Below are positions 15,162 through 39,800 of a stretch of 64,000 nucleotides of DNA, one piece after another (the stretch's first letter is position 1; every line of letters begins with the position of its first letter). The translations under genes and the position numbers were made by a program. Origin of the DNA: an uncultured virus (IMG/VR IMGVR_UViG_3300046463_000302) (lineage: Duplodnaviria > Heunggongvirae > Uroviricota > Caudoviricetes); IMG/VR virus record IMGVR_UViG_3300046463_000302. One strand, given 5' to 3'. The notes beneath the pieces are model-generated. The model did not search any database. It had not been told where the DNA came from and saw nothing but the letters and a program-made list of their open reading frames with translations.

Positions 15162-15191
15162 GAGGGGCCGGTTAGCGCTGGTCCTTCCTTC
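15162..15191 (+). terminator. hairpin/terminator after capsid gene
   Basis: GAGGGGCCGG..CTGGTCCTTC stem. Confidence 0.4.
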
Positions 15192-15218
15192 TGAACACCC
15201 CTGAATTGAGAGGAACAC

Positions 15219-15686: not shown

Positions 15687-15763
15687 GGCACCGCGGATCA
15701 TCAGTACGAGAGGGGCCGAGCGCCCCTCTGTTCATAACAGCAGTAGCAGAGGACAAATCCACC

Positions 15764-16237: not shown

Positions 16238-16881
16238 TGACGATCACCGCGCAAGACGTCCTGACCCGCGCCGGCAAGGTTCTCAACGACGACGCGCAAG
16301 TGCGCTGGACGCTTGATGAACTGCTGCTGTGGGTAACGGACGCTTTGCGCGAGATCGCCACGCGGAAACCTGTCGCGCTGTCGCGCACTGGCGTATGGAC
16401 GCTAGTGGCAGGCACGCGGCAGGCTATCCCGCCCGATTCGATTCGCCTGATCGACATGACCAGGAACATGGCGAGCGACGGCGTCACGCCGGGCTACTCG
16501 ATCCAGCCGGCGCTGCGCGGGGAACTCGACGCCCAAGCACCCGATTGGCATATGTCGCGCGCTTCGACGCGCATCAAGCACGTCATCTATGACCCGGATA
16601 CGGACCCGCTCCATTTCTTCGTCTATCCGCCGGCTGTCGATGGCGTGAAGGTGGAAGTGGTTGACTGCCAGAGCCCGACTCCGGTTACGGATAAGGACGC
16701 AGTTCTTCCCGTCAAGGACCAGTACATAAGCGCGGTCGTCTCGTTCGTTCTCTATCGCGCGCTGTCGCGAGAGAGCGAGGACGCAAGCGGGAACCTCGCG
16801 GCTGCGCACTATTCCGCGTTTGTCGGCGCGCTCGGTCAACCGCAGCAGGCAGCGCAGGCAGCGCAAACGGCAGGGGTGTAA
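16237..16881 (+). CDS. head-tail adaptor
   Basis: LNDDAQVRWT..LVAGTRQ..FFVYPP..YRALS pattern. Confidence 0.75.
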   Translation: MTITAQDVLTRAGKVLNDDAQVRWTLDELLLWVTDALREIATRKPVALSRTGVWTLVAGTRQAIPPDSIRLIDMTRNMASDGVTPGYSIQPALRGELDAQAPDWHMSRASTRIKHVIYDPDTDPLHFFVYPPAVDGVKVEVVDCQSPTPVTDKDAVLPVKDQYISAVVSFVLYRALSRESEDASGNLAAAHYSAFVGALGQPQQAAQAAQTAGV

Positions 16882-16884
16882 CGC

Positions 16885-17505
16885 ATGCGTGACCTGGACG
16901 TATTCCTTCCCAAAATCATGCCGAGTGCAACGGGTGTATCTGAGCCCACGGCGCTCGACGCGATCCGCGATACGGTAGCTGAATTCTGTCGCCGCACGCG
17001 CCTTTGGCGATTCGACGAGACATTCGACGTTTCGACGGCTGATTCGCAGGCTATCGCGGCGCCGTACGGTGCGCTATTGCTCGACATTGAGCGCATCGAC
17101 TTCAACGGCATCAAGCTGGATCCGATATCGACGCAATGGCTCGATAGCTACGTGCCGAACTGGCGCAGCGCGGACCCGTCCGGAAACGCCAAGTGGTACA
17201 CGCAGATCGACCGCGGAACCATCACGCTTGTCCCTGCATGCGCGGGCACCGTGCGCACATGGGTAACGCTTGAACTGAGCCAGGACGCGGAGCAGGTTCC
17301 CGACTTCATTGCAGATCAGCACCGCGAGACGATCGCGAGCGGCGCGCTCGCCCGCATCCTCATGCTTCCGGGCAAGCCGTACAGCAATCCCAATCTCGCG
17401 CAGGCGAGGAAGGTGGCGTTCGACGCAGATATCGACAGCCTGAAGTCGCAGGTAATAAGCGGCCAACAACGCGCGCGCGTCGGTTCGCGTGCGCAATTCA
17501 TGTAA
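16885..17505 (+). CDS. second adaptor/tail connector protein
   Basis: EFCRRTRLWR..IASGALARILMLPGKPYSNP, position in tail cluster. Confidence 0.7.
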   Translation: MRDLDVFLPKIMPSATGVSEPTALDAIRDTVAEFCRRTRLWRFDETFDVSTADSQAIAAPYGALLLDIERIDFNGIKLDPISTQWLDSYVPNWRSADPSGNAKWYTQIDRGTITLVPACAGTVRTWVTLELSQDAEQVPDFIADQHRETIASGALARILMLPGKPYSNPNLAQARKVAFDADIDSLKSQVISGQQRARVGSRAQFM

Positions 17506-17511
17506 TCGCCA

Positions 17512-19530: not shown

Positions 19531-20048
19531 TGCTTACATACTCGATCACGTCACAAGGCTTTGTATCGCGGTCAGATGGCGCATTTATTCCGGCCGACCC
19601 GCTCAACGCGGACTATGCGGCTTACCTCGCATGGTGCGCGGCAGGTAACACGGCGACGCAACCGGGCGCAGAAACGCTTGACGAAATTAAGCAGCGGCTA
19701 TCCGACGATATCGACTCGCAAGTCGCGGCCGCCTATGCATCGTGGCAAAGATTCCAAGCGGAATACGAGAAGCGCGAAGAGGCCGCGACCGCGTTCAAGA
19801 GCGCCGGCTATGTCGGCGATCCAGGCATTTACGTTACTGGATACGCGACGGCGGCCGGCGTCACGAACAAGCAAGCGGCTGACACCATCCTCGCGCAAGC
19901 GACGATGCTTAACGGTGCGCTCGCATCGATCGGCGCGCAGCGCATGCGCAAGTATGCGATTCAGGGCGCAGCCGACGCAGCGAGCGCACAGGCAGTGCAT
20001 GACGACATTGTTTCCAACGTCAACACCATCATTGCGGGGATCACATAA
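19530..20048 (+). CDS. tail fiber assembly chaperone-like protein
   Basis: RSDGAFIPADPLNADYAAYLAW motif, follows fiber. Confidence 0.75.
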   Translation: MLTYSITSQGFVSRSDGAFIPADPLNADYAAYLAWCAAGNTATQPGAETLDEIKQRLSDDIDSQVAAAYASWQRFQAEYEKREEAATAFKSAGYVGDPGIYVTGYATAAGVTNKQAADTILAQATMLNGALASIGAQRMRKYAIQGAADAASAQAVHDDIVSNVNTIIAGIT

Positions 20049-20524
20049 TGCGAGTTGCGTTCTTCAAGGGCCGTCATCCCGGCTACAAGGGGCTGTTCGG
20101 TGTACTGGTGAAGTGGTGGACCCGCGGCGACTTCAGCCACGTCGAGCTAGTCGTTGAGGACCGCGGCACAAGCGGCGTGTGTTGGTCATCCACCTTCCTG
20201 GATCATGGAGTGCGCCGCGCCGTGGTGGACTTCACGCCGGGCGATTGGATCTTTGTCGATATCCCGACGACGGCAGAGCAGGACGCAGCCGCGCTTGCAT
20301 GGTTTGAGCAGCACGCGGGCGAGCCGTATGACGTGCGCGGTCTGTTCGGCTTCGTGTTACGCCGAATCCCCGGCGAGAAGGGGAAATGGTTTTGTAGTGA
20401 GTCTGTCGCGGCGGCGCTTGGCGTCGAAGATCCGTGGCGCTTTGACCCGGCTACGTTCTACCGCGTGGCGGACAATTGGTGTCGTATGGTGCGGTACGAT
20501 GCCGCATTGAAGGGAGCCGCATAA
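20048..20524 (+). CDS. permuted papain-like (NlpC/P60) enzyme
   Basis: FSHVEL ... GEPYD ... KWFCSE, His before Cys. Confidence 0.75.
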   Translation: MRVAFFKGRHPGYKGLFGVLVKWWTRGDFSHVELVVEDRGTSGVCWSSTFLDHGVRRAVVDFTPGDWIFVDIPTTAEQDAAALAWFEQHAGEPYDVRGLFGFVLRRIPGEKGKWFCSESVAAALGVEDPWRFDPATFYRVADNWCRMVRYDAALKGAA

Positions 20525-21391
20525 ATGGCAGTCAAAATCACGAACAACGCGGTATCGAAGCTCGCGAGCGGGCTCGCTGCCAACGGGGTCACGGTAACGC
20601 TTACGCCAGGCGATGGTGCGAAGTTCCCCGCGCTCGCAGCTGGGGACTGGTTCCCGTTGTATCTAATCAAGGCAGATGGGTCTTACGAGATTTGCAAGGC
20701 CACGGCACGCGCGGTCGACGTCATTACTGTGGTGCGCGCGCAGGAAAACACGGCAGCACTGACGTTTGTCGCGGGTGAGCGCGTCGAGTTGCGCCTGACG
20801 AGTGCCGCATTTGAGGACCGCGTGGGCCGCGACGTGCTGAATGCGCTGTTCACTGGCGTTATCTCCAAGTGGGCAGGGGCGGTTGCCGATATCCCCGTCG
20901 GCTGGAAGCTGTGCGATGGCGCAAACGGGACGCCCGACCTTCGCGGCAAGTTCATCGTTGGCGCCGGTAGCGCTGGGGCGCAATACGCTGTCGGCGCGAC
21001 GGGCGGGGCGGATACCGTTGCGTTGACGGCTGCGCAAATGCCGGCTCATAACCACGCCGTCTATGACCCAGGTCATAGCCACGGCGTCAATGACCCCGGC
21101 CACAATCACGGCCTCAATGATCCTGGTCACGTACACGGGGCGCCGGGCGGATCTTTCGTCAATATGCAGGGAGGCGGAGGTAACGGCCTCAGCGGTGGCG
21201 GACAGAATTACACATTCCCTGGCACAACAAACGGTGCCGGGACGGGCATCTGGCTTAATGCGGCTGCTACAGGCATCTGGCTCAGCGGGAGCGGCACAGG
21301 AATTTCGACATATAACGCAGGCGGCAACGCTGCGCACGAAAACCGCCCGCCGTACTACGCGCTCGCCTATATCCAGTTCAAGGGTATCTGA
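20525..21391 (+). CDS. short tail fiber/spike with collar domain and HxH repeats
   Basis: PVGWKLCDGANGTPDLRGKF, DPGHxH repeats, HENRPPYYALAYI. Confidence 0.85.
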   Translation: MAVKITNNAVSKLASGLAANGVTVTLTPGDGAKFPALAAGDWFPLYLIKADGSYEICKATARAVDVITVVRAQENTAALTFVAGERVELRLTSAAFEDRVGRDVLNALFTGVISKWAGAVADIPVGWKLCDGANGTPDLRGKFIVGAGSAGAQYAVGATGGADTVALTAAQMPAHNHAVYDPGHSHGVNDPGHNHGLNDPGHVHGAPGGSFVNMQGGGGNGLSGGGQNYTFPGTTNGAGTGIWLNAAATGIWLSGSGTGISTYNAGGNAAHENRPPYYALAYIQFKGI

Positions 21392-23133
21392 TGCCGACGA
21401 TCAAGCTCACTCAGTTTACGGGCGAGATTCCGCGGCTGATTCCGCGCCTTCTGCCCGACACTGCCGCGCAGAACTCCATGAACGTGCGCCTCGAGGATGG
21501 CGGGCTGACTCCGGTTCGCAAGCGCAACTTCGTGGCCAACGTAGTTGGACTGGCCGCCGGCACGATCAAGACCATCTACAAGAATGGCGCGGAGTGGCTT
21601 GCGTGGCCGGTTAATGTCGATGCAGCGCCCGGCCCGGTTGCGACCGATCGCCTGTACTACACCGGCGATGGCGCTCCGAAAATGCGCGTCGCTGGCGTCG
21701 TCTATCCGCTCGCCGTGCCGCAGCCGGCGGGCTCGCTTACGGGAACGCCCGGCGGCGCCGGATCGGGCAACGTGACGACCTTGCTGTACGTCTATACCTG
21801 GGTCACGCAGTGGGATGAAGAGTCGGAGCCGTGCGCGGCATCGAACTACATCAACTGGCAACCTGGACAGTCTGTGACGCTGTCGGGCTTTGCTTCGCCG
21901 CCGGCAGGCCGCGGCATCGTGAAGCAGCGCATCTACCGCACGCAATCTGGCAATGCGACGTCGGGCCTGTACTTCATTGCGGAGCGCGCCGCGTCGAACG
22001 CCAACTACGTTGATGCGGTCAATCTGGCTGCAGCGCAAGAACTCATTCCGTCGACCGATTGGAATGCGCCGCCCGACACGCTGGCTGGCCTAACGGCACT
22101 GCCAAACGGCATGATGGCCGCGTTCAACGGCAAAGACCTCATGTTTTGCGAGCCGTGGCGCCCGCACGCATGGCCTGAAAAGTACGTGCTCACGACCGAC
22201 TATCCAATCGTGGCGTTGGGCGCGTTTGGCTCGACCATCGCCGTGCTGACGACCGGTAATCCGTACGTCGTATCGGGGACGTCGCCTGACTCCATGACGA
22301 TGGAGAAGGTAGAGCAGAACATTCCGTGTATCAATGGGCGCGCAACGGTCGATCTCGGCTATTCCGTTGCCTATCCGTCGAACGATGGCCTCGCGGTCAT
22401 CTCGTCGTCGGGCGCGACCGTCATGAGCAACCAGCTATTCACGCGAAGTGACTGGCTGAAAATGTTGCCGGCGACGATGAATGCCAGCCAGTTCGCCGGC
22501 CGCTACTTTGCGTCGTACGAGTATCTCGACGCGGACAGCCGGGCGAAAAGCGGATCGTTCATCGTCGATATGACCGGACAGACACCATTCCTGCTTCGGA
22601 CGGACCTGAAGCCGGATGCGTTCGCGTACGACATTCCGACCGGCGCGCTGTACATGCTGTTCGGTACCGAGATCTACGAGTGGGACCCCGTCGGGCAGTC
22701 CAATGAAACGCTCACCTGGAAGTCGAAGCAGTTCATCTTGCCGAAGCCGACCAACTTCGGCGCCATGATGATCGACGCAGGCGGCACGCGCACGCCCGAC
22801 GAGCAGGCCGCGTACGAGCAGCAGATCGCTGACGATGACGCATGGAACGCCGCGCACTTCGGGAACGTCTCGATTGAGGGCGAAGTGGGCGGGGCGGCCG
22901 TCGGCGCGTATGCCGTCGGCGGCGACCTGTTGCGCCGCACCGAGGACCGGCCATTCGTCTCGGTGAATGTCTACGCAGACCAGAAACTCGTTGCGAACGT
23001 CTCGACCCTGAACCGAATTGCGCGCCTGCCGGCAGGCTTTGAGGCGCGCATGTGGGAGTTCGAAGTCAATTCGAACACGCAGATTGCCGAGATCAACATT
23101 GCGACGAATGCGAAGGAGTTGGCACTGGTATGA
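21391..23133 (+). CDS. tail nozzle/head-closure protein
   Basis: FTGEIPRL.PRLLP, beta-propeller-like 580 aa, WKSKQF. Confidence 0.75.
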   Translation: MPTIKLTQFTGEIPRLIPRLLPDTAAQNSMNVRLEDGGLTPVRKRNFVANVVGLAAGTIKTIYKNGAEWLAWPVNVDAAPGPVATDRLYYTGDGAPKMRVAGVVYPLAVPQPAGSLTGTPGGAGSGNVTTLLYVYTWVTQWDEESEPCAASNYINWQPGQSVTLSGFASPPAGRGIVKQRIYRTQSGNATSGLYFIAERAASNANYVDAVNLAAAQELIPSTDWNAPPDTLAGLTALPNGMMAAFNGKDLMFCEPWRPHAWPEKYVLTTDYPIVALGAFGSTIAVLTTGNPYVVSGTSPDSMTMEKVEQNIPCINGRATVDLGYSVAYPSNDGLAVISSSGATVMSNQLFTRSDWLKMLPATMNASQFAGRYFASYEYLDADSRAKSGSFIVDMTGQTPFLLRTDLKPDAFAYDIPTGALYMLFGTEIYEWDPVGQSNETLTWKSKQFILPKPTNFGAMMIDAGGTRTPDEQAAYEQQIADDDAWNAAHFGNVSIEGEVGGAAVGAYAVGGDLLRRTEDRPFVSVNVYADQKLVANVSTLNRIARLPAGFEARMWEFEVNSNTQIAEINIATNAKELALV

Positions 23134-23354
23134 GCATGGATCAAGTCAACCTGGAAAAGCTCCAGACGCTAAACGGTGAGCGGGGCGACAAGCGGCGGGC
23201 TGCAGTGCGGCGCGGCGACGTCGCCACGCTCAGCGATGTGCAGATGAAGTCGAAGCAACTCACCGCGGCGCCGACGCTGGCCGACTACAACAACCTTCAG
23301 GCAGATCTCGCGCGCGTGTGGAGCCTGCTGTTAGGCATCGCTCAGAATCCGTGA
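23130..23354 (+). CDS. small virion protein
   Basis: AAGGAG RBS, ATGA overlap, APTLADYNNL. Confidence 0.65.
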   Translation: MSMDQVNLEKLQTLNGERGDKRRAAVRRGDVATLSDVQMKSKQLTAAPTLADYNNLQADLARVWSLLLGIAQNP

Positions 23355-23407
23355 CCACTGGTAACAAAAAACATACAATGTTGGCAAATCAGCACCAGGG
23401 CGGCGAA

Positions 23408-23896
23408 ATGGCGATTTTCTGTGAGCAGGGCAAAACGCTCGCCTTGATGAAGGGCAACCGCGCTGCGGCTGACTTCGTCGAGGCGATCGTCCGCGTCCTG
23501 CATTTTTGGGATGACCTGATCGACCGTGACAAGCCGCTCGACGACGGCACGATCAACCGCGCCATGCTTGACGCACTGGTGACGCTTCCCAGCAACCCGT
23601 TCTACCGCGCCCACTTCGACCGTTTGAGCGCGGTGCTCATGAACTCGATCACTAACTGGCACGTCGCCACGAAGTTTGAGCGAACCGGCGACGAGTACCG
23701 CGAGCGCATTGCCTACATTCTGCGTTCATCGTACGTGGACCTGATTACTACGGCAGCGCTGATCGTCGGCGGGCCAGAGTACGCGATCGAAGTTGGGGAG
23801 GAAATCCGCGTCTACGCCCACAAGGAAACGTGGGGCGGCTATCTGATTAACCTGCGTGCTGAAAAGGCCGCGCGAGCAGCGAAGGAGAACAAATAA
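23408..23896 (+). CDS. isoprenoid synthase/prenyltransferase-like protein (DDxxD)
   Basis: Predicted helical, HFWDDLIDRD, LPSNPFY. Confidence 0.55.
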   Translation: MAIFCEQGKTLALMKGNRAAADFVEAIVRVLHFWDDLIDRDKPLDDGTINRAMLDALVTLPSNPFYRAHFDRLSAVLMNSITNWHVATKFERTGDEYRERIAYILRSSYVDLITTAALIVGGPEYAIEVGEEIRVYAHKETWGGYLINLRAEKAARAAKENK

Positions 23897-24726
23897 TGTG
23901 CTGTGACGCACCAGATCCGCCCGCACAAGACCCGGCGGTAGGCTCGGCGGCAATGAAGGAGGCGGAGACAGGCCAGGGGTGGCTGGACTTCGCCAGAGAT
24001 CAATTCGCCGACAGCCAAACCCGGCAAAACGCGTCAGATGCGCTCACCAAACAGGTGACGGATGCGCAGCTGACGACGATGAACAACAACAATGCCTGGG
24101 CCAAGCAGCAGCAGGACCGGCAGACCAGCGTTTTCCAGCCGCTTCAGGATCAGTACGTTAAAGAGGCGCAAGACTACGGATCGCAGTCGAACCAGGAAGC
24201 GCGCGCGGCAGAGGCAAAAGCCGACGTCATGAACAACGCGGCGACGGCGAACGCTGCAAGCGCGCGCTCCATGGCGTCGATGGGCATCAATCCGAACTCG
24301 GGCCGCTGGGCGGGCACGCAGCGCGCGCAGGATCTCGGCACGGCAGTTACCGCAGCCGGCGCGGAGAACACGGCACGTCAGGCAGTGCGCGATAAGGCGC
24401 TCGACCTGAAGGCGAACGCGATCAACATGGGCAACGGCGTTGCTGCGAACACCGCAACGGCGTATGGGCTCGGCACAACGGCGGGCAATTCTGCCGCGGG
24501 CAACCAGCTTGCATCGGATGCGGCGCAGCGGGCAAACGTTGCGGCTGTTGGTCAAGGCTATGGCGGCGCCTTGAGCGGTTACGCAGGGCAGGCCGGCACG
24601 CTGGCGTCGCAGTACAACACCAACATTCAAGCCTGGGGTCTCGGCCAGCAGGCAGGGGCATCGAGTTCGGCCGGCATGGGTAACATGATCGGCATGCTCG
24701 GCGGTGCCGGTATCAGCGCTTTCTAA
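23896..24726 (+). CDS. internal virion/ejection protein 1
   Basis: Starts MCCDAPDPP, Q/A/N-rich, SMGINPNSG, Gly-rich hydrophobic C-terminus. Confidence 0.7.
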   Translation: MCCDAPDPPAQDPAVGSAAMKEAETGQGWLDFARDQFADSQTRQNASDALTKQVTDAQLTTMNNNNAWAKQQQDRQTSVFQPLQDQYVKEAQDYGSQSNQEARAAEAKADVMNNAATANAASARSMASMGINPNSGRWAGTQRAQDLGTAVTAAGAENTARQAVRDKALDLKANAINMGNGVAANTATAYGLGTTAGNSAAGNQLASDAAQRANVAAVGQGYGGALSGYAGQAGTLASQYNTNIQAWGLGQQAGASSSAGMGNMIGMLGGAGISAF

Positions 24727-24743
24727 CCACGCAAACACAAAAA

Positions 24744-25472
24744 ATGGACACTACCATCGCAAAGCACGCGCGCATCGCGCTTCAGTTCTCGGGCGGCAAG
24801 GATAGCCTCGCCATGCTTCACCTGATGCGTAAGCATTGGGACCGGATGACCGTGTATTGGGTCAATACCGGCGACGCATTCCCGGAGACGCTCGACCTTG
24901 CAGAGCGCGTGCGCAAGATGGTCCCTAATTTTGTGGAGATCGACGGCAATCAGCCGCAGGTTATCGCGATGCACGGCATCCCGTCTGACATTGTGCCAGT
25001 GAGCGCGACGCCTATCGGTGTGAGCAACGGCGGCCACGGCGTGTTGATGCAGGACCGCTATTCCTGCTGCATGCGCACGGTCATGTTGCCGTTAGCGCGT
25101 CGCATGATCGACGACGGAATCACGCTGATCGTGCGCGGCCAGAAAGAGGCCGATGCACTCAAAGCGCCGCTGCGCTCGGGCGACGTCGACGAGGGGATTG
25201 AATACCTGTTCCCGCTCGAGGACTGGACCGACGAGGACGTTATGACGTTCCTCGAGGAAGAGGGTATTGAATTGCCGCGCTACTACGAGTCGATGCGCTC
25301 GAATCCGCCGTGTCTGTCGTGCTCGGCGTGGTGGGACGACGGCCGCGCAGCGTATATGAAGCAGCACCATCCGTTGCACTATGACCTGTACCAGCAACGC
25401 CTGAACACTATCAGCGACGCTGTCGGCGGGCACATTGCCGCGTTCAACATCGAGGTTTCCGACGGTGGATGA
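24744..25472 (+). CDS. PAPS reductase-family (PP-loop) protein
   Basis: FSGGKDS, VNTGDAFPET, SCC, RGQK, PLEDWT, CLSC. Confidence 0.88.
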   Translation: MDTTIAKHARIALQFSGGKDSLAMLHLMRKHWDRMTVYWVNTGDAFPETLDLAERVRKMVPNFVEIDGNQPQVIAMHGIPSDIVPVSATPIGVSNGGHGVLMQDRYSCCMRTVMLPLARRMIDDGITLIVRGQKEADALKAPLRSGDVDEGIEYLFPLEDWTDEDVMTFLEEEGIELPRYYESMRSNPPCLSCSAWWDDGRAAYMKQHHPLHYDLYQQRLNTISDAVGGHIAAFNIEVSDGG

Positions 25473-26235
25473 AAACCAAGACCCGAATGACCCGCTCGCT
25501 GCGGTAAATGCGGAGAACCAGCGGCAGCAGGATGAGCTAGAGCGCGAGCAGCAGATCGCGTTCGAACAGATGCGCCTCAGTCGCCAGCAGCAGCCGAAAG
25601 GCGGACTGAACAGCAATAGCTCGTCTATGGACCCGCAACAGTTCATGTCGCCGGCCGCAGGCGGGCTAGGCGGGTTCACTGGTGCATCGGCTCCTGCTAT
25701 TGGCGCGGGCACTGGCGAAGGTGCGACGGGGCTATTCGGGCTTGGCGGCGGTGCGGAAATGGCGGGCGGCTCGACAGGATCCGGCCTGTTCACGCTAGGC
25801 GGGGCAAGTGAAGGTGTCGGCGCGGGCAGCGCCGGCATGTTCTCGATGGGCGGCGGCGCAGCGGCCGGCGGTGCTGCGGCAGAGGGCGGCGGCGCCGCGC
25901 TTGGCGGCGGAGGCGCCGCGATGGGCGGTAGCGGCATGATGGGCAGCATGTCGGCCGCCGGTCCTTGGGCGGCGCTCGCCGCGGTTGTTCTCCTGCACAA
26001 CAAGTGGGCCGTGGACCACGACATTCACAAGAATTCGGACTTCTTCACGCAGCAGGGGCCAGCAAAAGACGGGCGTTATTACGCGACGAAGATGAACAAG
26101 ATCATTCCCGGATGGGGTACAGACGCAAAGGTATGGGGCGACCTGAGTTCATTCCGTGTCGGCAGCGCGATAAAGGATTGGAAGCATAACCCGCTTGGCC
26201 CGATCGGCGGCCTGTTCGGCATGGGTAAGGACTAA
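25465..26235 (+). CDS. Gly-rich ejection protein 2 with TM segment
   Basis: GAGG RBS, Gly/Ala-rich, AAGPWAALAAVVLL. Confidence 0.65.
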   Translation: MDENQDPNDPLAAVNAENQRQQDELEREQQIAFEQMRLSRQQQPKGGLNSNSSSMDPQQFMSPAAGGLGGFTGASAPAIGAGTGEGATGLFGLGGGAEMAGGSTGSGLFTLGGASEGVGAGSAGMFSMGGGAAAGGAAAEGGGAALGGGGAAMGGSGMMGSMSAAGPWAALAAVVLLHNKWAVDHDIHKNSDFFTQQGPAKDGRYYATKMNKIIPGWGTDAKVWGDLSSFRVGSAIKDWKHNPLGPIGGLFGMGKD

Positions 26236-26246
26236 TAGGAGCTACG

Positions 26247-27716
26247 ATGGGATTCAATTTTGGCGCATTCGCAGGCGGGCTCGGTCAGGGCGTCAACAAT
26301 GGCATTGCACTGAGCAACCAGATTCGGCAGCAGATCAACGACGAGAACGTCCGCGACCTTCAGCAGAAGGGCATGCAAGAGGCGCAGGCGCAGCGCGAAC
26401 AAGCCATTGGCGAAAGCATCAAGGCAAACGGCTTGCACGGCGCCGCTGACCCGCAGACGGCGACGGACAATGCGACGGCTGCGGCAACCAACGTAAGCCC
26501 CGCGCTCGGCGGCCTGATGGCGGGTGCCGACGTAAGCCAGTCGCCGGCCGCGCAAGCTCAGCCGCAAACCCAGGTGAGCGCCGCCGGCAGCGCGCCGATG
26601 TTCTCGAAGGATGCGCCCAGCAGCTATACCGTCGGAGGCAAGCAGTACGGCGACTTTGACAGCGCCAAGGCCGCAGCTTCCGCCAATGCGCCGTCGGCGA
26701 TGGATCTTTTCATCAAGGATTCTGTGCCAAAGGTGTCCCAGCTGTACCTTTCGCAAGGCGATCCGCAAAAGGCGCAGGCGTGGCAGGATTGGGCGGACAA
26801 GTCGGCAAACCAGCAGAGCATGAAAACCTGGGCGAAGGCGTATCAGGCCGCGCAGATGGGGGACATGGACACTGCAACCGATCTCATGGTCAAGCTGTAC
26901 GACAAGGTCGACGATGGCATTTCGGTCGTGAAGAAAACGCCGACACTCGACCAGAACGGCCAGCTAAAGGCTTATACGATCACGCTCAAGCAGGACAAGA
27001 CGGGCAAAACGTGGGACCAGGAAGTAACGCCCCAGGCGCTGATGACTATGGGTATGGCGGGCCTGTCTCCCGACAAGCAATTCGAAATGCAGTACAAGAC
27101 TCTGACCGATGCGGCTGCAGCGCGCGCCAAGTATGCGGCGCAAGATGCGCACGACGAACGGGTATTCAAGCGCGACATTGCGAAAAAGGGCATCGACGCG
27201 AAGATCGACGAGGCGAAAGATGCGCGGGTCACGGACCGCGATCTCGCGCTCGAGGACAAGCGGCACGGCAACCGCATGGAAGAGGACAACAACAAGACGA
27301 CGCTCGAAACGGCGAACATCGGCGCGAAGGAGAAGGCCAAGGTTCAGGCGAAAATGGATGCGCTGAAGGCCGCCGGCTACTCGGACGACGATATCAAGGG
27401 CTTGATGCCGACGTTGCTGAACGCCGACACGTACAAGAAGCCGACGTCGCCGGCAGAGACGCGCCGTATGGCCTTTGATGCGCGCATGAAGGGCGACTTC
27501 TCTTTCGCCAATAAGTCGTCGGCTGAACAGAACAAGATCATCGACAGCGATATCGCGACGATCACAGGCGGCGCAGCGCCGACTACCGGCAAGACGGCCA
27601 ACCCGTTCGCCAACCCGGCCGCATCGGGCTTGCCTGCATCGGGTGCGCAACCCGCAGGGAAGCCGCAAGGCATTCCGGTCTACGACACGAAAACCGGGCA
27701 AGTCGTCTACCAGTAA
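26247..27716 (+). CDS. ejection protein 3 (helical)
   Basis: MGFNFGAFAGGLGQG start, Q/A/K-rich, precedes giant protein. Confidence 0.7.
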   Translation: MGFNFGAFAGGLGQGVNNGIALSNQIRQQINDENVRDLQQKGMQEAQAQREQAIGESIKANGLHGAADPQTATDNATAAATNVSPALGGLMAGADVSQSPAAQAQPQTQVSAAGSAPMFSKDAPSSYTVGGKQYGDFDSAKAAASANAPSAMDLFIKDSVPKVSQLYLSQGDPQKAQAWQDWADKSANQQSMKTWAKAYQAAQMGDMDTATDLMVKLYDKVDDGISVVKKTPTLDQNGQLKAYTITLKQDKTGKTWDQEVTPQALMTMGMAGLSPDKQFEMQYKTLTDAAAARAKYAAQDAHDERVFKRDIAKKGIDAKIDEAKDARVTDRDLALEDKRHGNRMEEDNNKTTLETANIGAKEKAKVQAKMDALKAAGYSDDDIKGLMPTLLNADTYKKPTSPAETRRMAFDARMKGDFSFANKSSAEQNKIIDSDIATITGGAAPTTGKTANPFANPAASGLPASGAQPAGKPQGIPVYDTKTGQVVYQ

Positions 27717-27805: not shown

Positions 27806-30800
27806 GTGGCTGATAATCCGTTCCTGCAAAATCCGTACGATGCGCTGACCAGCGATCTCAACGCACAGGCGCAGGCGGACGCAGCAACGCCGCTTCCATC
27901 GATCGACATGCCGGCACGCACGCCGGCCGCCGCGCCAGCATCCGATGAAGGATCGCGCGGCGCGGGCACGGACAATCTTCTCCCGCCCGCCAAATACCGC
28001 GGACTCTTCGACGCGACAGCACAGAAAACCGGCGTGCCGGTAAATGTGCTGATGGCGCTCGCGCACCAGGAGTCGCGCTACAACCCGACTGCGCTGGGCG
28101 AGCAAACGAAGTGGGGCCGTGCCAAGGGCATGGCGCAATATCTCGACGGCACCGCATCCGATCGCGGCATCAACCCGTACAACCCCGACGAAGCTATCCC
28201 GGCAATGGCGCAGGATATCAAGCGCCGGCTTGATCGTGGCGACACGATGATGGAAGCGATCAAGGCGCACTTCGGCGGCGATGACCGTTCGGCGTGGGGC
28301 CAAAAGACGGCGGCGTACGGCGCTGAAGTTATGGCGAAAGTCGGCAAGATCGCCGCCATGCTGCAAAAGCCGGGTACGAACCTGAACGATTCGCTTGGCG
28401 ATGGCGAGCAGGCAATGTCGGACGATGCCGCTGCGCTTCAGGGCAAGCTCGATAAGCAGGATCCCGGTAGATACAAGGTGCTGACTGCGGACGAGGCCGC
28501 CAAACTCTCTGCATCGCAGAAGCCAGCCGACGCGCCGGGTGCGCCGATACAGGACGCATCGAGCGGCTTGAACCTCAATCTGCTCAGTCTCACGAATGAC
28601 GACAAGGCGGACTGGTCGTATATCGGCAAGTCGCTGAAGGCGGGCGCGTTCGATGTTGCCGGCGCCGCGGCCAAGATCCTCGACACGCTCAACCCGTTCA
28701 CGTTGAGCAAGGCTGACGCGGCCACGCTGTTCAAGGACGATCCGGCGAAGCTGAAGGAAGTACAGGACTCTAGCGCTTCGATGATCCTGTCGCGCTTTGC
28801 CGATTCGATGCAGAAGCACGGCAATGACACGATGGACACGATCTCGCCGGATGCAAAGGCGAAGTTCGGCAACCTTGAGTACGCGACGCTCGACCCGAAG
28901 AAGGCCGCATACCTTCAGCCGGCGAAGGTCATCGGTGACGCCGTGCGCTCTCTGCCGACTATGGCCGCGCTCGCGGTCACGGCATATTTCACGCGCGGCG
29001 CCGCTGCGCAGGCAGAGAAAGACGCGCTCGCCGCTGGAATGCCCGCCTACGCCGCTCGCCAAGCCGGTATCGAAGCGGCGCAGCACGCGGCAGCACGCGT
29101 TGGCGCTGGCTCTGAAGGCGCCGTCGGCTATGCGCAGCAATCGCTCTCGACGGCTGATGATCTAAGCAAGAAAACCCCGCAGGAACTCGCGCAGACGTCG
29201 CCGAAGTACGCTGAACTGATCGCGCAGGGCTACACGCCCGAGACGGCCAAGGCGCAACTCGTTGCCGACACCGCAGAGGCCGCCGGCCAGATCGGCGGCA
29301 TTGTCGATGCCGCAGTCAATCACGTCGGCGGGCACTTCCTCGGCAAGATCCTCACGGAAGGCGGCCCGTTCATCAAGCGTGTTATGAAGGGCTTCGTCAA
29401 TGAAGGCTCGACTGAGGCGGTGCAGAGCGCAGGCGAGCAGCTTGGCCAGAACGTTGCCACGCAGCAAAACATTGACCGCAATCAGGACACCTGGCAGGAC
29501 GTCGGCGAGAACGCCGCGCAAGGTCTTGCCGTCGGCGGGCTGACTGGTGGCGCGACGGCGGGCGCGGGCGGGCGTGGTGGGCCGCAGCATCAACCGGGCG
29601 ACCCGAATGTTATCGACGGCCATGCGCGCATTGTGGATGGTCCGGACTGGATTGAAGCGCCGGGCGCCGCACCGGCAGGCTCGCCGCAACTTCCGTACGA
29701 CGCAGCGAAGTTGCCGGCGCCGACGGCCGCCGCGCCGGGCGCATCGCCGCTCTCGAGTGCGGTGCAGAACGCCGCGAACCAGCACGCCGCGCAGAAGGCG
29801 AATGTCGCCGCAGCTGCGCAGGCCGGCGAGCGCGTCAAGGTCACGACGCCGCAAGGCGAAATCACTGGCGCACTTGATCGACTCGCGACGGGCGAGAACG
29901 GCCAGTTTGCCGCGCGCGTGCTTGGTGACGACGGCCAGATCTATCACTTCACGCACGATGACGGCGTGACGATCGCGCCGGAAGGTGCGGAGCAGGCGGC
30001 AGAGGCCGCGCCCGCTTCGGAACCCGCCGTGCCGACGAAGCCGACGGACACTGCCGTCGACAATTCCGGTCATCCGGACGACGAAACGCTGTATCCGCAA
30101 GCGGTTGATCTCGTCACGGCGCATCAACGCCCGTCGATATCGCTTGTTCAGCGGCATCTTCGTATCGGCTACAACCGCGCCGCACGCCTGCTGGAACGCA
30201 TGGAGGCAAACGGTATCGTTGGCCCGATGCAGGCAGACGGCTCGCGCGCAATGCTGCGCACCGCCGAAGCGGCGCCCGCTGCGCAGCCGAAGAAGGAAGC
30301 GCCCGCAGCAGCCGCGCCCGCATCGCAGGGCGGCCAGCGCACGCTGAACGTGCGCGGCAAGCGCACCCCGGTCCAGTTCGCGACCGAAGGCGATGCCAAG
30401 CTGTTCGACGTCGCGACGAACCTCAACGCGATGCGCCTCGGCGCTGGCGACTCAGCATCGGTCGCCGCGAAGTCGACGCGTGATTACCTGGCGAAGCTCG
30501 CCGCGAATACCGGCCGCGACGAGAACACGGTTTCCGCGATGGTCGAATCGATGCGCAAGGCCGTGATGGCAGCGCTTCGCGATCACCAGGACGGCACGCT
30601 GACATTGCCGCCGCTCGTTGAACTGACGACGAACGGTATGCCCAAGATGCAACCGGAGAGCGCCGCCAATGGGACGCCTACTGCTACGCCTGATGAAAAA
30701 CCCGCGAGCGCTGCAGGCGAGCGCGCGCCGCAATCCGGTAGCACTGGTGACGCTGCTGGAACTGGAAAGCCTGTCGAGCAGCAGAACGCTGCACTGACGA

Positions 30801-33800
30801 CGACAGAGGCCGCACCCGTCAAGTGGTTCGGCACGCAGGAGAAGGCTGACGCTTTCATCGCGAAGAAGGGGCTCGCCGACACGCATCAAGTCGTGGAGAC
30901 GAAGCGCAACCGCTTCGAGATCCAGCCGAAACCGGCGGCGCAGGCTGAAGCACCGAACGCGCCGGAAGCCGCTCCAGCACAGGCTTCGTCGGGGGCGCGC
31001 AAGGTAGGCGGGCGCAAGCTGAAGGAGGGCTTCAAGCAATTCTCCCCCGACACAGGCACGCTGGGCATCCCGCGCGAGGAAATGCCGCAGGTTCCGACCG
31101 AATCGCACGGCGCGTTAGTCAATCACCTGAACGCGCAGGGCATCGAGCATGAAACCAAGATGGTGCCGGCTGATGAACTGAAGCCGACGCAGGCCGAATA
31201 CTCGCCAGAGAAGGTGGAGAAGGCGAAGGACGCTACCGGCGATCGTGCCGTTATCGTGTCCAACGATGGCCACATCATCGATGGGCACCATCAAGCGCTC
31301 GCCGCGCAAGAGGAAGGCAAGGACGTCAAGGCGATCGTGCTCGACGCGCCGGTTCATGAGGCACTCGATGCGGTGAAGAAATCGCCGAGCGCGCAGACCG
31401 AGCAGGCGAAGCCGGCATTCGACGCCGAGAGCAAGTGGCAATCTCTCAGCGCTGGCGATATCCATGACGTGCTGGAAAAGGCTGGCTTCACGGACGAGAC
31501 TGGCAGGCTCACGCCGGAAGGCTCGAAGATCGCGCAATCCCATTTCTCCGACATTCCGGCCGGCGCGTGGGAAAAGATCGTCAACGCAATGGAGGCCGAG
31601 CCGGCCGCCGACGAGTCGCCGCGCCAACCGGAACCGCCGAAGGGCAAGGGTCCGAAGGTCGACTTCAGCAAGAACAAAATGTTCACTGAGGACAAGATTG
31701 AGGCAGCGCGCGCACGCCTGCGCTCGAAACTTGGCACGTTGAACAGCGGCATCGATCCCGAGATCATGGCCGACGGCCTTACGATCGCGGGCGGATACCT
31801 CGAGGCGGGCGTACGCGAGTTCTCTGCGTTCGCCAGCGCACTCATGGACGATTTTGGCGCGAAAATCAAGCCTTATCTGCTATCGTTTTACGAGGGCGCG
31901 CGCCACTTCCCAGGCTTGGACACCGAAGGCATGACGGAGTCCAGCGAGGCAAAACGCCTGCACGGCGAACTGATGGCCGAGAAACCGGCTGAACAAACCA
32001 ACGTAGAGGCACACAATGACGCCAAGCCAGTGGAAGCGGACGCTCGAGCAGGCGATGAAGGATCTAGCGCCGCAGTCGTACGCCAGGATGGTGGCGGACG
32101 GGACGCTCAAGGGGTATCTGAACAACCTGCTGGCGAACGTGTCGAACACGGTGGCGCAGATGCAGGATCAAGCGATCAACAGCCACGTAACGCAGGGGAG
32201 CCCGCAGTACGTGGCGGATCCGACGGCGCGGACGCAAGCGCTAAACCAAAACGCAAAGTCGGCGGAAGAAACCGCCCTGTCGCAAGCGGTGGAGGAAATT
32301 CGCTCCCTCGAAGCGCAGCAGGACAAAACCACCGAATTGCCGTAGGCGAACTGAAGCGCGAAGGATCGTGGATCCAGACCGCCGAGCGCAACGTCGGCAT
32401 CATTGAGGCAGTCAAGCGCCTCGCAGCTGAAGGCCGCCGGCCGACGCCGGAAGAAGCGCGCGAGTTCGCGAAGTACACCGGCATGGGCGCGAGCGAGATC
32501 GCGAACGGCATCTTCCCGAACCAGTACGGCCAGTACAAGACGCAGCAATGGCGCGCGCTGGGCGAACGCCTGAAGGCCGCGCTGACTCCGGAAGAGTACG
32601 AGGCCGCGCGCCGCACCACACAGTATGCGCACTACACCAGCGAGGGCGTAATTCGTTCGGTGTTCAACGCGCTCGACCGCCTGGGATTCAAGGGCGGCTC
32701 TGTGCTTGAGCCGGGTATGGGCGTAGGCCACTTCAACGGCCTGATGCCCGACCACATGGCGGCGACCAGCAATTACACCGGTATCGAGTACGACCCGATC
32801 ACCGCGGCAATCGCCAAGGCGCTTTACCCGCAAAGCCATGTCATTGAAGGCGACTATACGAAAACGTCGCTCCCGAAAGACTTCTTCGACGCGGCTATCG
32901 GCAACCCGCCTTTCGGCAGCATCAAGATCACGAACGATCCTGAGTACAAGAAGCACGGCTTCATGCTTCACGACTATTTCTTCGCCAAGACGCTCGACCG
33001 CGTCAAGCCGGGCGGACTGGTCGTGTTCGTGACCAGCAAGGGCACGATGGACAAGGGCAGCAGCCGTGCGCGTGAGTTCATGGGCGAGCGTGCGAACCTG
33101 CTGGGCGCCGTGCGCCTGCCGCAGACCGCGTTCCTGCACAACGCCGGTACCGAAGTCGTGACCGACGTTATCTTCCTGCAGAAGCGCGGGCCCGGCATTC
33201 CGGACAACGGCACGAAGTGGATGGGCACGGCGCAAGTGCAGACGCCACAAGGCCCGGCTCACATCAACGAATACTTTGCCGCGCACCCGGAAATGGTGCT
33301 TGGCGCGCACGCGCTGACTGGCTCGATGTACCGCGCGAATGAGTACACCGTACTCCCGCGCGAGGGCGATATCGAACAGCACTTCGCTGAAGCGCTAACG
33401 AAACTGCCCGAGAACGTCTATCGCCCAGCGCAGGGCACGGCCGCCGAACGCGCCGTTGTGCAAGACCGCGACTTCAATCCGAAGCACCGGAAGGAGGGCG
33501 GGCTGTACGTCGACGATAACGGCCGCCTGATGCAAGTAGAGGACGGTACCGGCGTTGAGGTTGTGAGCCGCTTCGGTTCCGACGGAAAGGTTATCCAGTT
33601 GAAGCCGCGCGAAAAAGCGTGGCTGCGCGACTATGTTGGCCTGCGCGATGCGATGAAGCAAACGCAGTTCGACCAGTTGAATGATGGCGGCTGGGAAAAG
33701 TCGCTGAAGGCGCTGCAATCGGCCTATGCCAAGTTCGTCGAGAAGCACGGCAACGTGCTCGAATACACGACGATGGAGCGCACCGGGCCGGATGGCGAGA

Positions 33801-36800
33801 TCACGACGACGCGCCTGTTCAAGAATCGCGCGCTGTTCGGCGTGGATGCAGAGGGCGCGCTGGCCTATGCGCTCGAAAGCATCGCCGAAGATGGCTCGAT
33901 TGTGCCTGGCGCCGTGCTCAAAGGCCGCGTGCTCAACAAGCCGATCGATCCTGAGATCCGTTCGACGCAGGATGCGATGTTCGTGTCGCTGAACCGTCAC
34001 GGATCGCTCGACGTGGAGGACGTTGCACGCCTCGCGGGCGTGGACGTCGCGCGCGTCATTGAGGATCTTGGCACGTCGATCTATGAAGCGCCGGGCAAGG
34101 GCTGGCAACTCGCCGACGATTATCTGTCGGGCAATGTCGTACGCAAGCTGAAGGAGGCGCGCGCCGCGGCCCGCGTGAACCCGCGCTTCCAACGCAACGT
34201 TGACGCGCTGATCGCTGCGCAGCCGCGCCCGCTGGGCCCGACTGATATTACGGTGCGACTCGGCCAGAATTGGGTACCGCCGAAGGATATCGAAGCGTTC
34301 GCGAAGGAGATCATCGGCGACCGCATGAGCGTGACGTACAACGAGAAGTTGAATTCGTGGGACGTGACGCCGCATGAACGCAACGTGTCCGAGTGGGGCA
34401 TGGAGCGCATGCCGGCATCGCTGATTCTCGATGCGGTGCTCAACTCGCGCCAGATCAAGATTACGTACAAGGATCAAAGCGGCAAGACCTATACCGATGC
34501 CGAATCGACCGAAAAGGCGAACGACATTGCGCGCAAGATGAAGGAGGCGTTCCGCCGCTGGGTCTGGACCGACACCGCGCGCTCCGAGCGCTTGACGAAC
34601 TACTACAACGAGCACTTCAACAACATCGCGCCGCGCACGTTCGACGGCTCGCACCTGACGTTGCCGGGCCTGTCGTCGCGCTTCAAGCCATTCGATCACC
34701 AGAAGCGCGCAATCTGGCGCCAGATCCAGCAGGGCGACACGTACCTTGCGCACGCGGTGGGCGCCGGCAAGACGTTTGAAATGATCGCGGGCGGCATGGA
34801 GCAGCGCCGCCTTGGGCTTATCAAGAAGCCGGTCTACGCCGTGCCGAATCACATGCTGGCGCAGTTCGCTCGCGAGTTCCTCGAGTTCTATCCGGCGGCC
34901 AACATCATGGTTGCTGACGAACAGAATTTCCACACCAGCAACCGTCGCCGCTTCATCGCGCAGGCCGCGCTGAACAACCCGGATGCGATCGTTATCACGC
35001 ACTCGGCGTTTGGCCGTATCGGCATGAGCGACGAGTACACGAACGAATTCATCGGCAAGCAGATCAAGGAGTGGCAGGACGCGCTGGAGGAAGTCGATTC
35101 GGGCGACCGCATCACAACGAAGCAGATCGAGCGCCGCATTGAAGCGCTCGAGCGCCGGATGGAAGGCAAGCAGGCCAAGGAAAAGAAAGACAAGGTTCTC
35201 ACGTTCGAAGAACTCGGCGCGGACATGATCTACGTCGACGAATTCCATGAGTTCCGTAAGCTGGACTTCGCGACCAATCAGGGCAACATCAAGGGTATCG
35301 ACCCGGCGGGCTCGCAGCGGGCAATGGACCTGATGATGAAGGTTCAATACCTGCGCGAGAAGAACCCGACGCGCTCACTGGTCGCAGCATCCGGAACGCC
35401 GATCACGAACACCATGGGCGAACTGTTCACGGTCCAACGCTTCTTCCAGGAGAAGCAGCTTGAAGAGGACGGGCTGAACACGTTCGACGCGTGGGCATCG
35501 CAGTATGGCGACGTCGTTACCGGGCTCGAGCAGAATGCGGCCGGCGGCTATGAGAACGTGAGCCGCTTCGCTAAATTCCAGAACGTGCCGGAACTGATGC
35601 GCCGCGTACGCTCTTTCATGGACATTCTGACCAGTTCGCACCTTGGCGAGCTAGTCGAGCGTCCGACGGTTGAGGGCGGCCAGCGTCAGGTTGTCGTCAC
35701 GCAGGCTCCCGACGGCTACAAGGAGTATCAGAAGCAGCTCGAAACCCGTATCACGGCGATCCGCAACCGCAAGGGTCCGCCGCAGAAGGGCGACGACATT
35801 ATTCTGAAGGTCATTTCGGACGGCCGTTTCTCGGCGATTGACATGCGCTTCGTGGATCCGACGCGCCCGAGCGATCCCAAGTCCAAGCTCAACAGGATGC
35901 TGGACGACGTCATTGCCGCCTACCATGAGACGGCGGATAACGTCTACGTCGACAAGGCGACCGGCAATCCTGACCCGATCAAGGGTTCCTCGCTGATTAT
36001 CTTCACGGATATCGGGCTGGGCGAGGCGGCGGCCGAAAGCCGTGGCTTCGACATGCACGCGTGGATCCAGCATCGTCTCGTTGAGGCGGGCATCCCGCGC
36101 GCGCACATCGCGTTCATGCGGGACAACAAGCAGCACGCGAAGAAGGAACGGCTGTTCGCCGCAATGCGCGCGGGCGAGAAGCGCATCCTGATCGGCGGCA
36201 AGGACATGGAAACGGGCGTGAACGTGCAAAAGCGCCTCACGCACCTGTTCCATCTTGACGCGCCCTGGTTCCCGGCATCGGTCGAGCAGCGCGAGGGACG
36301 CATCGTGCGCCAGGGCAACCAGAACCCGAACGTCTGGATTGGCGGCTATGCGACCAAGGGCAGCTACGACAGCACCATGTGGGGCATGAATGCCCGCAAG
36401 GCACGCTTTATCGAGCAGGCCATGAACGGCGATGATTCGGTGCGCTCGCTGGACGACGTCTCCGAAGCATCGGCCTTTGAAATGGCCGCTGCGCTGGCAT
36501 CCGGAGACGAGCGTTACATGAAGCTCGCCGGCCTGAAGGGCGACATTGACCGCCTCGAGCGCTTGCGCGCGGCGCACCACGACGAGCAGAACAAGTTGAT
36601 GCGCTCGAAGTCGTGGGCCGAATCCGCAATCCAGCGCAATCGCGCGATAGTTGAGGCGATCGACAAGGCGCTTGCCGTGCGCACGCCGATCCGTGCGGGC
36701 GAGTTCGCCGGCAAGGTTGGCGAATCGACGTTTGATGCCCGCGACGACTTTTCTGGTGCGCTGTTCGACGAGTTCAAGCGCCTGAGTGACGAGAGTTTCG

Positions 36801-39800
36801 ACGGCGAGAAGCAGATTGGCGAGATCGGCGGTTTCCCGATCACGTACTACGGCGTGGCCGGCAAGAAACTCGGCGACTACAGCGCGAGCGTGCATGTGGG
36901 CCTGCCGACAGACCCGTCGCCGCTGATCCAATGGCCAGTGCGCGACGACTTCGCAATCAACGGCATCGCTGCACGCGCAGTGAACCAGATTAACGGGCTC
37001 GACAAGGACGCCGCCGAATCGCGCAACACCATCGCGCAGGAAGAACGCCGCCTGAAGCAGATCCAGAGCCGCCTCGGCGCGCCGTTCCCTGAAGAACAGG
37101 AGCTTCTCGAAAAGATCGCCGACATGAACGCGCTTGAAACCGAACTGGCTGCGGAAAAGCCGGAACAGGAAGTAAGCCCCGAAGCGCTCAACGCAACTAC
37201 CGACGTAGACCCGAATCCTGCCGGCGACGAGCCGCGGCGCTCCATCGCTGCACCGACCGATACCGGCGCAGCGCTGCGCGCGGGCGAACTCGGTGCGTTC
37301 ATCGGCAAGCTAATCGATGCGGGTCGTATAGTGCTGCACGATACCGCACGAAGCGTTCCGGGCAAGCACCCGATCGGCACGCAGGCTGTGACCGAGCGCG
37401 ATGGCACGATTCACCTGGTGGGCGAGAACCTGAAGCCGGGCGAAGCGCAGGCCGTCTTGCTGCATGAAATGATGCACGGCGGCGTTCGCGCACTGATCGG
37501 CGGTGCTGCGTGGGACTCGTTGCTCAAGCGCCTCGATGCACTGCGTACGCAGGCCGAACGCTCGACGGGCCGCGCCCGCGAGTTTTATGACGCCGCACGT
37601 CGCCGCGTCGCAGGCGCAGAACTGGCCGGCGACAACATGGGCAGCGATGCCGTGCGCGCCGAAGAGTTTGGCGCATACACGGTCGAAGAGTACGAGAACG
37701 CGCCGAGCGCCTTCCGTAAGTGGGTGGACGACGTCCTTGGCGCGATCAAGGCATGGCTGATGCACCGCTTCGGCGTGCAGCTGGGCCGCGTCACGCCCGC
37801 GCAGCTTTCCGAGCTCGCAAAGGCTGCACTGCGCCGCGCCGCGGTGGCGCCTGAGACTGACCCGAGCGAACCGACCGGCCCGCGCCGTTCAGTGTCGAAG
37901 GAAGAGGCGGAAGCCGCATTGAACGAAGCGGCAGCATCGCTCAACGAGGAACCCGTCAACAAGGGCGACTATATCGGCCGCGTGACGTCGGACCTGTCTC
38001 TCGTCTCTCGCCTGTTCAACTACCCGCGCCAGATCGCCGCGTTTTTCCCGAAGTTCACGCCGGTCTACCGTACGGCTATCGACCAGATGGAGGCGCGCGA
38101 CGCAACGATTAGCGAGTTGGGGCACCACGCGCAGGCGTATGACGCGCTCGACCAGGCCGGAAAAGAGAACGTGAACCGTGCGCTTGAACTTGGCCGCCTC
38201 ATGTCCGAGACGTTCTCTAAGAGCGATTTGACTGCAGGCGTGAAGAACCCCGGCGAAGCAAAGGTCATGGAGCAGGACGCGAACGGCCGCCCGGTCTGGA
38301 CGTCCAAGCCGTTTGAATCGTCGCTGACGAAGAAGGGCGACACCATCAAGTTGTCCGCCGACGAGGCGACCGCGTACGCCGGCCTGCGCACGATGTTCGA
38401 TGCCGCGCTCGACAAGTTCCGCGATCAAACCCTCGAGGAAATGGGCTACGGCCAGTTTGCGGGCTCGACGGACGCGGCCAAGGCTATCGCTGCGACTATC
38501 ACGCCGGAAATGACTGGCGCACAAAAGGACCGCTTGCAAAGCGTGGCGCGCTTCATCGGCGAGATTGAGCAGGCAAAGCGCGCCGGCTACGTTCCGTTCG
38601 CGCGCTACGGCGACTACGTTGTGACGGTCAAGGAGACGCAGCCGAACGGCGATGACAAGACTATCTACTCGACGAAGGTTGAAACTGGCCTTAGCGATAT
38701 GCTCGCCGAGCGTGGCACGAAGGCGGGCCGCAAGCCTATCGACCAGATTCCGGCTGTGAAAGCAGCGATCGACGCCGCGCGCGCCAAGTATGTCGACGGC
38801 AACCCGAATCGCCGTATCGTGGCGTTCGCGCCCGAGCAGCGCCGCGCCGACCAGCCGGTCAAACTGTCGGACGTCGATGCACTCGCGCAAATCGCGAACA
38901 TCGATAACGATACGTGGGATGCGGTGCGCGACCAGCTTGCCGATGCGATCAAGGGACAGTCTTTCCGCAAGCACTTCTTCCACTCCGATAACGTGCCGGG
39001 CTACTCCGGAGACTTCGAGCGCGCGATTGCCGACTACATCATCGGCATGTCGGGCTACCTCGCGCGCCGCTCGCACATGGCCGCATGGAATGATTCGATC
39101 GACGGCATCAAGGGCCAGCCGAAACTCTACGACTATGCGCAGAAATACCGCGCGTACGCGAACGAGCCGCAGGAAGAATTGGCCGCGCTGCGCCAGGCCG
39201 GGTACTTCATGTACATCGCCGGCACGCCGGCAACGGCATTCGCCAACTTGACGCAGGTTCCGTTGCTGACGTTCCCGACACTCATGCAGGTTGCACCCTC
39301 GCACCGCGTTGCGTTCGAACTGACGCGCGCCTACAAGGATGCGTTCGCAATGCTCGCCGCGCCGCGCGTTGGGCTCGACCTGTTCGACCCGAACAAGGCG
39401 CCGGCCGACGTGCGCGGCATCCTGAAGGAAGCATGGGCCGATGGCGCATTCGTGCCGCAGGACACGTACGAAATGATGATGACGGCCCGCCAGCGCAACG
39501 TTGGGCGCCGGAAGGTCACGAAGGCTTTCAATACGATCTCGCAGGTTGTGTCGATCGCATTCTCAGGCGCCGAGCGCCTTAACCGACTGGTCACGTTCAT
39601 CGCCGCGGCGCGCCTCGCCGAGAAGGAAGCAATCCGGAAGAACGCAGAGAAGAACCTTGGCAATAATGCACTGGCCCGCGCGTCGATCCTGGGCGCGAAC
39701 TGGAGCCCGAAGGCGTTTGCAGAATGGGCTGTCGACGAAAGCCAGTTCCGCATGGGCAAGGGCAATCGACCGGGCGTGATGCGCGGCGTTGGCGCGGTGC

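Follow-up and report, generated by a model that had tools for sequence, protein, structure and literature searches.

An FtsK gamma winged helix in the giant DarB-like virion protein of a putative phage-plasmid carrying a dif-like site

The element and its DarB-like protein

The DNA considered here is a 64,000-nucleotide stretch of an uncultured member of the Caudoviricetes (IMG/VR record IMGVR_UViG_3300046463_000302), called the window at its full length; its features are collected in Table 1. The gene of main interest belongs to a PHROG family annotated as 'DarB-like antirestriction' (phrog_10089), lies among the late virion genes and carries variable accessory domains. It shows the hallmark of the DarB core, an adenine methylase (NPPF/Y) fused to a SWI2/SNF2-like helicase, and this core is 71-73% identical to those of the DarB-like proteins encoded at the same gene position by Bcep22 and JC1 (Lessievirus) and by the Ralstonia phages Heva and Gervaise (Cimandefvirus/Gervaisevirus). 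Those phages encode recombinases, however, whereas the element described here has ParA and Rep genes and a dif-like site. The ParB-like region gave no Pfam match; its Atlas neighbours carry ParB_N in 14% of members, or ParBc_2 in 57%, and a presence map indicates that this probable domain is itself optional among DarB relatives.

Table 1. Features of the window bearing on the gamma domain and the dif-like site
Feature	Position	Strand	Basis or remark
Bcep22-like virion cluster: TerL, portal, major capsid, tail fibre, internal virion proteins	8271..27716	+	immediately before the DarB gene
DarB-like polyvalent virion protein, 4322 aa	27806..40774	+	PHROG 10089, 2880 bits
SLT lytic transglycosylase domain, aa 67-161	28004..28288	+	profile match
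FtsK gamma winged helix, aa 759-817	30080..30256	+	Pfam, phmmer, AlphaFold model, Foldseek
Helix2-helix3 surface of gamma	30149..30205	+	residue lists of PMC5052618 Table 1 and PMC2680272
DdrB-type ParB-like domain (probable), aa ~1070-1200	31013..31405	+	Atlas neighbours; a lead, not firm
N6-adenine methyltransferase	32705..33100	+	motif I at 32708, NPPF at 32900
SF2/SNF2 helicase-like motor	34682..36316	+	Walker A 34754, DEFH 35234, motif VI 36287
PLxRFG C-terminal domain (NF032893)	38585..40708	+	217.5 bits, cut-off 100
dif-like XerCD site (predicted): degenerate XerC arm, 6-bp centre, canonical XerD arm	43453..43480	-	pattern search
HTH_36-type replication initiator-like gene	43987..44598	-	profile match
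Small ParA partner-like gene	44602..45030	-	weak TacA1-like match
ParA partition ATPase	45027..45689	-	profile matches

The JC1 DarB homologue, gp69, has been found in virions (PMC9144972), and DarB of P1 is described as packaged and injected, with the DNA protected from restriction in cis (PMC5512222); by analogy, the 4322-aa protein is probably packaged and ejected with the genome. The fusion of an FtsK winged helix to such proteins is already in print: Iyer et al. (2017, PMC5512222) list it as an infrequent dsDNA-binding add-on of polyvalent proteins, of which Cupriavidus WP_029307715 is an example, with the same methylase-SF2 dyad, a lysozyme and other add-ons, and a place among phage late genes. 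The exact architecture seen here may already be among those in that paper, which gives the FtsK winged helix two sentences and, in the sections covered here, no residue or dif analysis.

Searches of the nearest record, G001, identical with the window from 5875 on, turned up neither a tyrosine (PF00589) nor a serine (PF00239) recombinase, and the description of the element as integrase-less in the earlier sequence-only reading is thereby borne out. The element thus combines the traits of a phage-plasmid: a full virion module, Rep and ParA, with no integrase found. The relative closest to it, from Caballeronia zhejiangensis OP-1, is a 62-kb contig that stands free, is circularly permuted and encodes Rep3 and ParA, and from their gene content we read the element and this Caballeronia sister as putative phage-plasmids of Burkholderiaceae, presumably kept as episomes. 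The window holds no Rfam or tRNA match. G-rich purine octamers are strongly strand-biased (78:7) across the whole element, regardless of gene direction. From position 1 to about 8200, before TerL, the window resembles the early region of a KL4-like lambdoid phage (repressor pair, RecET, methylase), which gives the window two RecET sets; G001 starts at 5875, and the long contigs of two sequencing runs both start at window position 7357. This part either comes from a second phage, linked on at a branch in the assembly, or belongs to a true hybrid.

The FtsK gamma domain and its relatives

The ORF translation places the gamma peptide in frame at residues 758-817 of the giant protein. The sequence-only reading had recognised it as FtsK gamma and proposed a profile search as a check; that search matches Pfam FtsK_gamma (PF09397) to residues 759-817 with 77.8 bits (E 5e-22, model positions 3-61 of 63), against a curated cut-off of 30.6 bits. 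All six phmmer matches among PDB sequences are FtsK gamma (2VE8, 2J5O, 2IUT, 2J5P, 2IUS and 5DCF), and an AlphaFold model built on a 47-row alignment (pLDDT 89) has three helices and a wing, lies within an rmsd of 1.1-1.9 A of 2VE8/2VE9 and finds nothing but FtsK gamma structures in Foldseek (13 of 13 matches at E<=0.001). The identity of the domain is thus confirmed on every count, and an intact FtsK gamma winged helix is present in this giant phage protein. Single contigs cover gamma and its upstream flank in three of the four sequencing runs, one of them a run not flagged as a possible source of the element's DNA, so the fusion is no assembly artefact.

The domain sits between disordered linkers, Ala/Pro-rich on both sides, in which hydrophobic residues make up 7% (aa 730-757) and 0% (aa 820-845). 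Unlike the gamma of the FtsK/SpoIIIE translocases it comes without the hexameric alpha-beta motor: profile searches of the 4322-aa protein found no FtsK motor family, the ATPase present being SF2, and gamma lies about 1480 residues from that motor, with one copy per monomer. It is also internal rather than C-terminal, and belongs to a virion protein and not to a hexamer. In fold, in XerD-contact residues and in KOPS residues it is nevertheless the same as the FtsK subdomain (PF09397; 2VE8, 2VE9, 2J5P, 5DCF). The complex of gamma with XerD has been solved (5DCF), and a structure of gamma on KOPS was reportedly described by Lowe et al. in 2008.

Six residues of E. coli FtsK gamma contact XerD (PMC5052618), namely Q1288, R1289, R1292, I1293, G1294 and N1296, and all six are identical in the phage domain (Q782, R783, R786, I787, G788 and N790). 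The residues whose change makes gamma KOPS-blind, R1300, E1303 and E1306 (PMC2680272), are likewise all identical (R794, E797 and E800); the E. coli numbering was mapped by ungapped counting from the 1289-1297 peptide. These intact sets are not diagnostic, since 79 of 218 gamma domains from non-giant proteins carry the full XerD-contact set and 92 of 218 the full KOPS set; the XerD-contact set is the common core of the gamma family. Six giant-protein copies keep it whole. By our reading of the sequences, a divergent subfamily (the second copy of L033, and P0202, P0178 and P0191) has kept helix 3 with R1300 and E1303 and lost Q1288, R1289 and R1292.

The gamma of the window has the same residue as its counterpart in the DarB-phage record G412 at 39 of 60 codons, of which 19 differ silently, while the flanks barely align. 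Such silent divergence under conserved residues points to purifying selection on the gamma protein, part of it possibly older than the insertion. The GC3 of the segment is 0.67, as against 0.78 +/- 0.08 for the gene, and 5 of 72 bins are as low.

Among DarB relatives the domain is a scattered minority feature. The DarB of the closest relative, 84% identical in core DNA, lacks it, with an alignment gap exactly there, and none of five named phage DarBs tested has it. Of the best 120 of 1213 DarB homologues, 8 contain a gamma-like module, seven found by our own profile HMM (>=19 bits) and P0191 by phmmer; only three are intact (>60 bits), and the precomputed PF09397 label is attached to five of the same 120. 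On a FastTree tree built from the methylase domain (122 rows, with L033 and P0004 added to those best 120 of 1213, and P0191 labelled gamma-less) presence is unclustered, with 8 changes against 8.8 when shuffled. A DarB of G412 (L033/L048) has two gammas, aa 799-856 and 953-1009, one intact and the other of the divergent subfamily. The slot in Bcep22-like proteins precedes a KWFG module, while gamma has other neighbours in P0004, P0005 and P0109. An intein with a LAGLIDADG domain lies at residues ~3836-4114 of P0004, in the C-terminal region of that DarB-like giant. According to the precomputed list, 3 of the best 120 of 1213 homologues bear an H-NS C-terminal domain, one of them a gamma-less sister of the gamma-bearing P0003; in the two where this DNA-binding domain could be located (P0175, aa 1023-1058, and P0207, aa 1105-1140) it lies in the same region of the DarB linker as gamma. 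Among 396 scored Caballeronia-family genomes a close DarB was found only in the already known sister element.

Beyond DarB, gamma of the PF09397 type was matched in 376 of 50,697 phage records, with many annotated RdgC fusions among the matches listed, and it is also inserted in primase-helicase linkers. These phage RdgC and primase fusions share with the DarB fusion a motor-less gamma, the same conserved surface and a DNA-acting phage protein, but they are early, mostly C-terminal (65 of 80 viral matches end <=25 residues from gamma) and far commoner. Gamma stands mid-protein in several ORFs of about 1000 aa (P0068, P0078; L181, L183, L187, L209, L223, L225, L232 and L244), two of which we take to be Toprim primase-helicase fusions. 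A metagenome scan for gamma gave no giant ORF among 80 matches, and 64 of the 80 had an FtsK motor motif. One Caballeronia genome (G002:C5; L010, L011) has two chromosomal FtsK paralogues with gamma. A tree of 228 gamma domains, of 57 columns and with 9 of 224 branches well supported, resolves neither a single origin of the giant-protein copies nor a donor. The literature search, with most subscription papers outside its reach, found no functional study of motor-less phage gamma domains, and nothing on FtsK gamma with RdgC or in prophages.

The dif-like site

A dif-like pattern with a 6-bp centre matches the element exactly at 43453-43473 (minus strand), where 0.28 matches would be expected even at three mismatches, so the site that the sequence-only reading had predicted is there on search. 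A second match at 43864-43884, with three mismatches, was treated as chance. The Caballeronia sister has a site in the corresponding position, flanked by the lysis module and Rep (G002:C40, 58276-58296); it keeps the XerD arm and the inner XerC arm, and the centre differs.

Only these two of 30 DarB-phage records, the element and its gamma-less sister, have the site. ParA occurs in three records, both site carriers included, and PF00589 in 15, neither site carrier among them, while gamma exceeds the cut-off in three, one with both gamma and site and two with gamma only, leaving one record with the site only. Association with the site gives a Fisher p of 0.19 in the case of gamma and of 0.007 in that of ParA, the two carriers being sisters that do not count independently. 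The provirus G412, its gamma intact, carries no dif-like site; at its left end lies an ORF with a weak likeness to excisionases. In wider sampling (50 of 80 loci in each direction) gamma was present in 2 of 48 dif-carrying virus records, and an exact site in 2 of 50 gamma-carrying records, with one more at two mismatches and one match in the control; 33 of these 50 are proviruses, from whose record ends hybrid dif sites could be trimmed off. Across relatives the dif-like site accompanies the ParA/Rep plasmid module, not gamma. Contigs of all four sequencing runs cross it unbroken, contigs being such as drop rare forms.

Plasmids commonly rely on host XerCD for multimer resolution (PMC5357621). 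Comparison may also be made with TLC-phi, an IMEX with the activator XafT (PMC9226527): both are mobile, have a dif-like site and lack an integrase, and the element here has a candidate XerD activator of its own. Here it is the XerC arm that is degenerate, the XerD arm being canonical, the reverse of TLC-phi; moreover, the element has its own Rep and ParA, and activator and site do not travel together among the 30 DarB-phage records.

The two Bcep22-like phage-plasmids both have the site beside Rep/ParA, with different Rep genes (HTH_36 type and Rep3), and the same 16-base dif pattern matches at least 116 viral-contig stretches; together these observations suggest that the use of host XerCD by phage-plasmids may be common. 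The literature search found nothing on phage-plasmid prophages using Xer at dif. In two other Caballeronia contigs, L020 and L022 (G002:C18 and C76), a second XerD-arm-like sequence, inverted, stands about 30 bp upstream of the dif-like site, and these sites adjoin transposase and toxin-antitoxin-like genes, recalling pdif modules. A 12-kb contig of run X2 (record 14), a different replicon, has 37 bases in common with window 43452-43488 at three differences.

Possible roles of the gamma domain

The reading we consider fairly probable is that gamma is an optional dsDNA tether in a DarB-like polyvalent protein. The domain, host-derived, would be a dsDNA-binding bead in the variable N-terminal linker of DarB, which, to judge from its homologues, would be taken up into the head and enter the cell together with the genome, the delivered methylase-SF2 dyad then modifying and protecting phage DNA in cis. 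Gamma might add a grip on DNA of low specificity, with perhaps a mild preference for G-rich octamers resembling KOPS, which would help to keep DarB on phage DNA during packaging or after ejection; other small modules that bind DNA, the H-NS C-terminal domain for one, could take its place. The dif-like site would belong to the plasmid module, independently of gamma, and be used by host XerCD. We count in favour of the tether the scattered minority presence, the H-NS alternative, the divergent subfamily that keeps helix 3, the purifying selection, the other phage gamma fusions and the listing of the FtsK winged helix by Iyer et al.; against it stand the retention of every known XerD-contact and KOPS residue here, and of the whole XerD-contact set in six giant-protein copies, together with the dif-like site in the same genome.

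The patchy presence and the decayed copies also count against a tether, in that they equally fit a nearly neutral passenger, gamma cassettes having been recombined, out of the many phage RdgC or primase fusions, into a linker that tolerates them, and decaying later. Gamma is indeed rare, scattered and often degenerate, the closest relative does without it, and its low GC3 fits a recent arrival. Nevertheless it recurs before the KWFG module in unrelated branches, as well as in the unrelated giants P0004, P0005 and P0109; its residues are conserved where silent sites have diverged, a selection that may however be older than the insertion; and the divergent subfamily is itself conserved. We regard such a passenger as unlikely. 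The sequence-only reading had gamma read KOPS (GGGNAGGG) on the phage genome and so give the SF2 motor direction for uptake or targeted methylation, and both the conserved equivalents of R1300, E1303 and E1306 and the placing of seven of eight KOPS on one strand would agree with this. Against it, the count of 8 compares with 4.3 +/- 2.4 expected and is reached in 12 of 100 shuffles, and the 7:1 skew compares with 6:1 for the reversed-pattern control and 78:7 for 29 other G-rich arrangements; these shuffle and control-motif counts led us to reject KOPS enrichment or polarity as support. G412, with its intact gamma, has two KOPS, gamma-less relatives are skewed 8:0, 0:7 and 7:0, and KOPS loading uses three gammas of a hexamer (PMC5052618), against the single one of a phage monomer. 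With a count near chance, a skew no greater than that of control motifs and a motor some 1480 residues away, KOPS-directed uptake is unsupported, and steering of any such kind seems highly improbable.

A different possibility is that ejected DarB uses gamma as an FtsK-independent activator of XerD at the phage dif-like site, an analogue of XafT, which we hold to be quite unlikely; the same doubt attaches to the version in which the virion-borne SF2 translocase carries gamma along the incoming genome and host XerCD resolves circularisation multimers or integrates the element at host dif. Activation is mechanistically possible, by analogy with XafT (PMC9226527), since isolated gamma without a motor activates XerCD at high concentration (PMC3130261) and a tethered 9-residue peptide suffices (PMC5052618), a peptide that the phage matches at seven of nine positions; all six XerD contacts are conserved, the dif-like site is present and no integrase was found in G001. 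Yet site and gamma, in two and three of 30 DarB-phage records, are found together only here, the intact gamma of G412 has no site beside it, and the wider sampling paired gamma with the site in just 2 of 48 and 2 of 50 records. The contact set is common in the family (79 of 218 non-giant domains), and the contigs of all four runs pass the site unbroken. The sequence-only suggestion that gamma recruits host XerCD to an integrase-less element was right about the site and the missing integrase and is otherwise weak, because across relatives the site goes with ParA/Rep and not with gamma. A late virion protein would, moreover, not be expected in a silent prophage, so that a routine role in dimer or multimer resolution would fall away, leaving entry or the late lytic stages. 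It is also conceivable, though very improbable, that gamma, delivered with the virion or made late, is a decoy that binds chromosomal KOPS or XerD of the host, disturbing FtsK-coupled segregation or provoking unregulated XerCD recombination. Both surfaces are intact here, and motor-less gamma yields topologically complex products that would impair unlinking; the same work, however, needed high gamma concentrations in vitro (PMC3130261), P1 packages about 40 copies of DarB (PMC9024508), and impaired segregation would presumably hurt a plasmid prophage.

Gamma is here more likely just a further DNA-binding accessory of a polyvalent protein, and phage proteins commonly carry an FtsK gamma without the motor. 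The element lends itself to testing, as it unites an intact gamma with a dif-like site in one integrase-less genome, and the gamma-less sister, which has the same site, offers a natural control. If activation of XerD were true, XafT would be joined by a second kind of Xer activator encoded by a phage, and the first to arrive in the virion, a mimic of the FtsK-gamma/XerD switch that would act during establishment.
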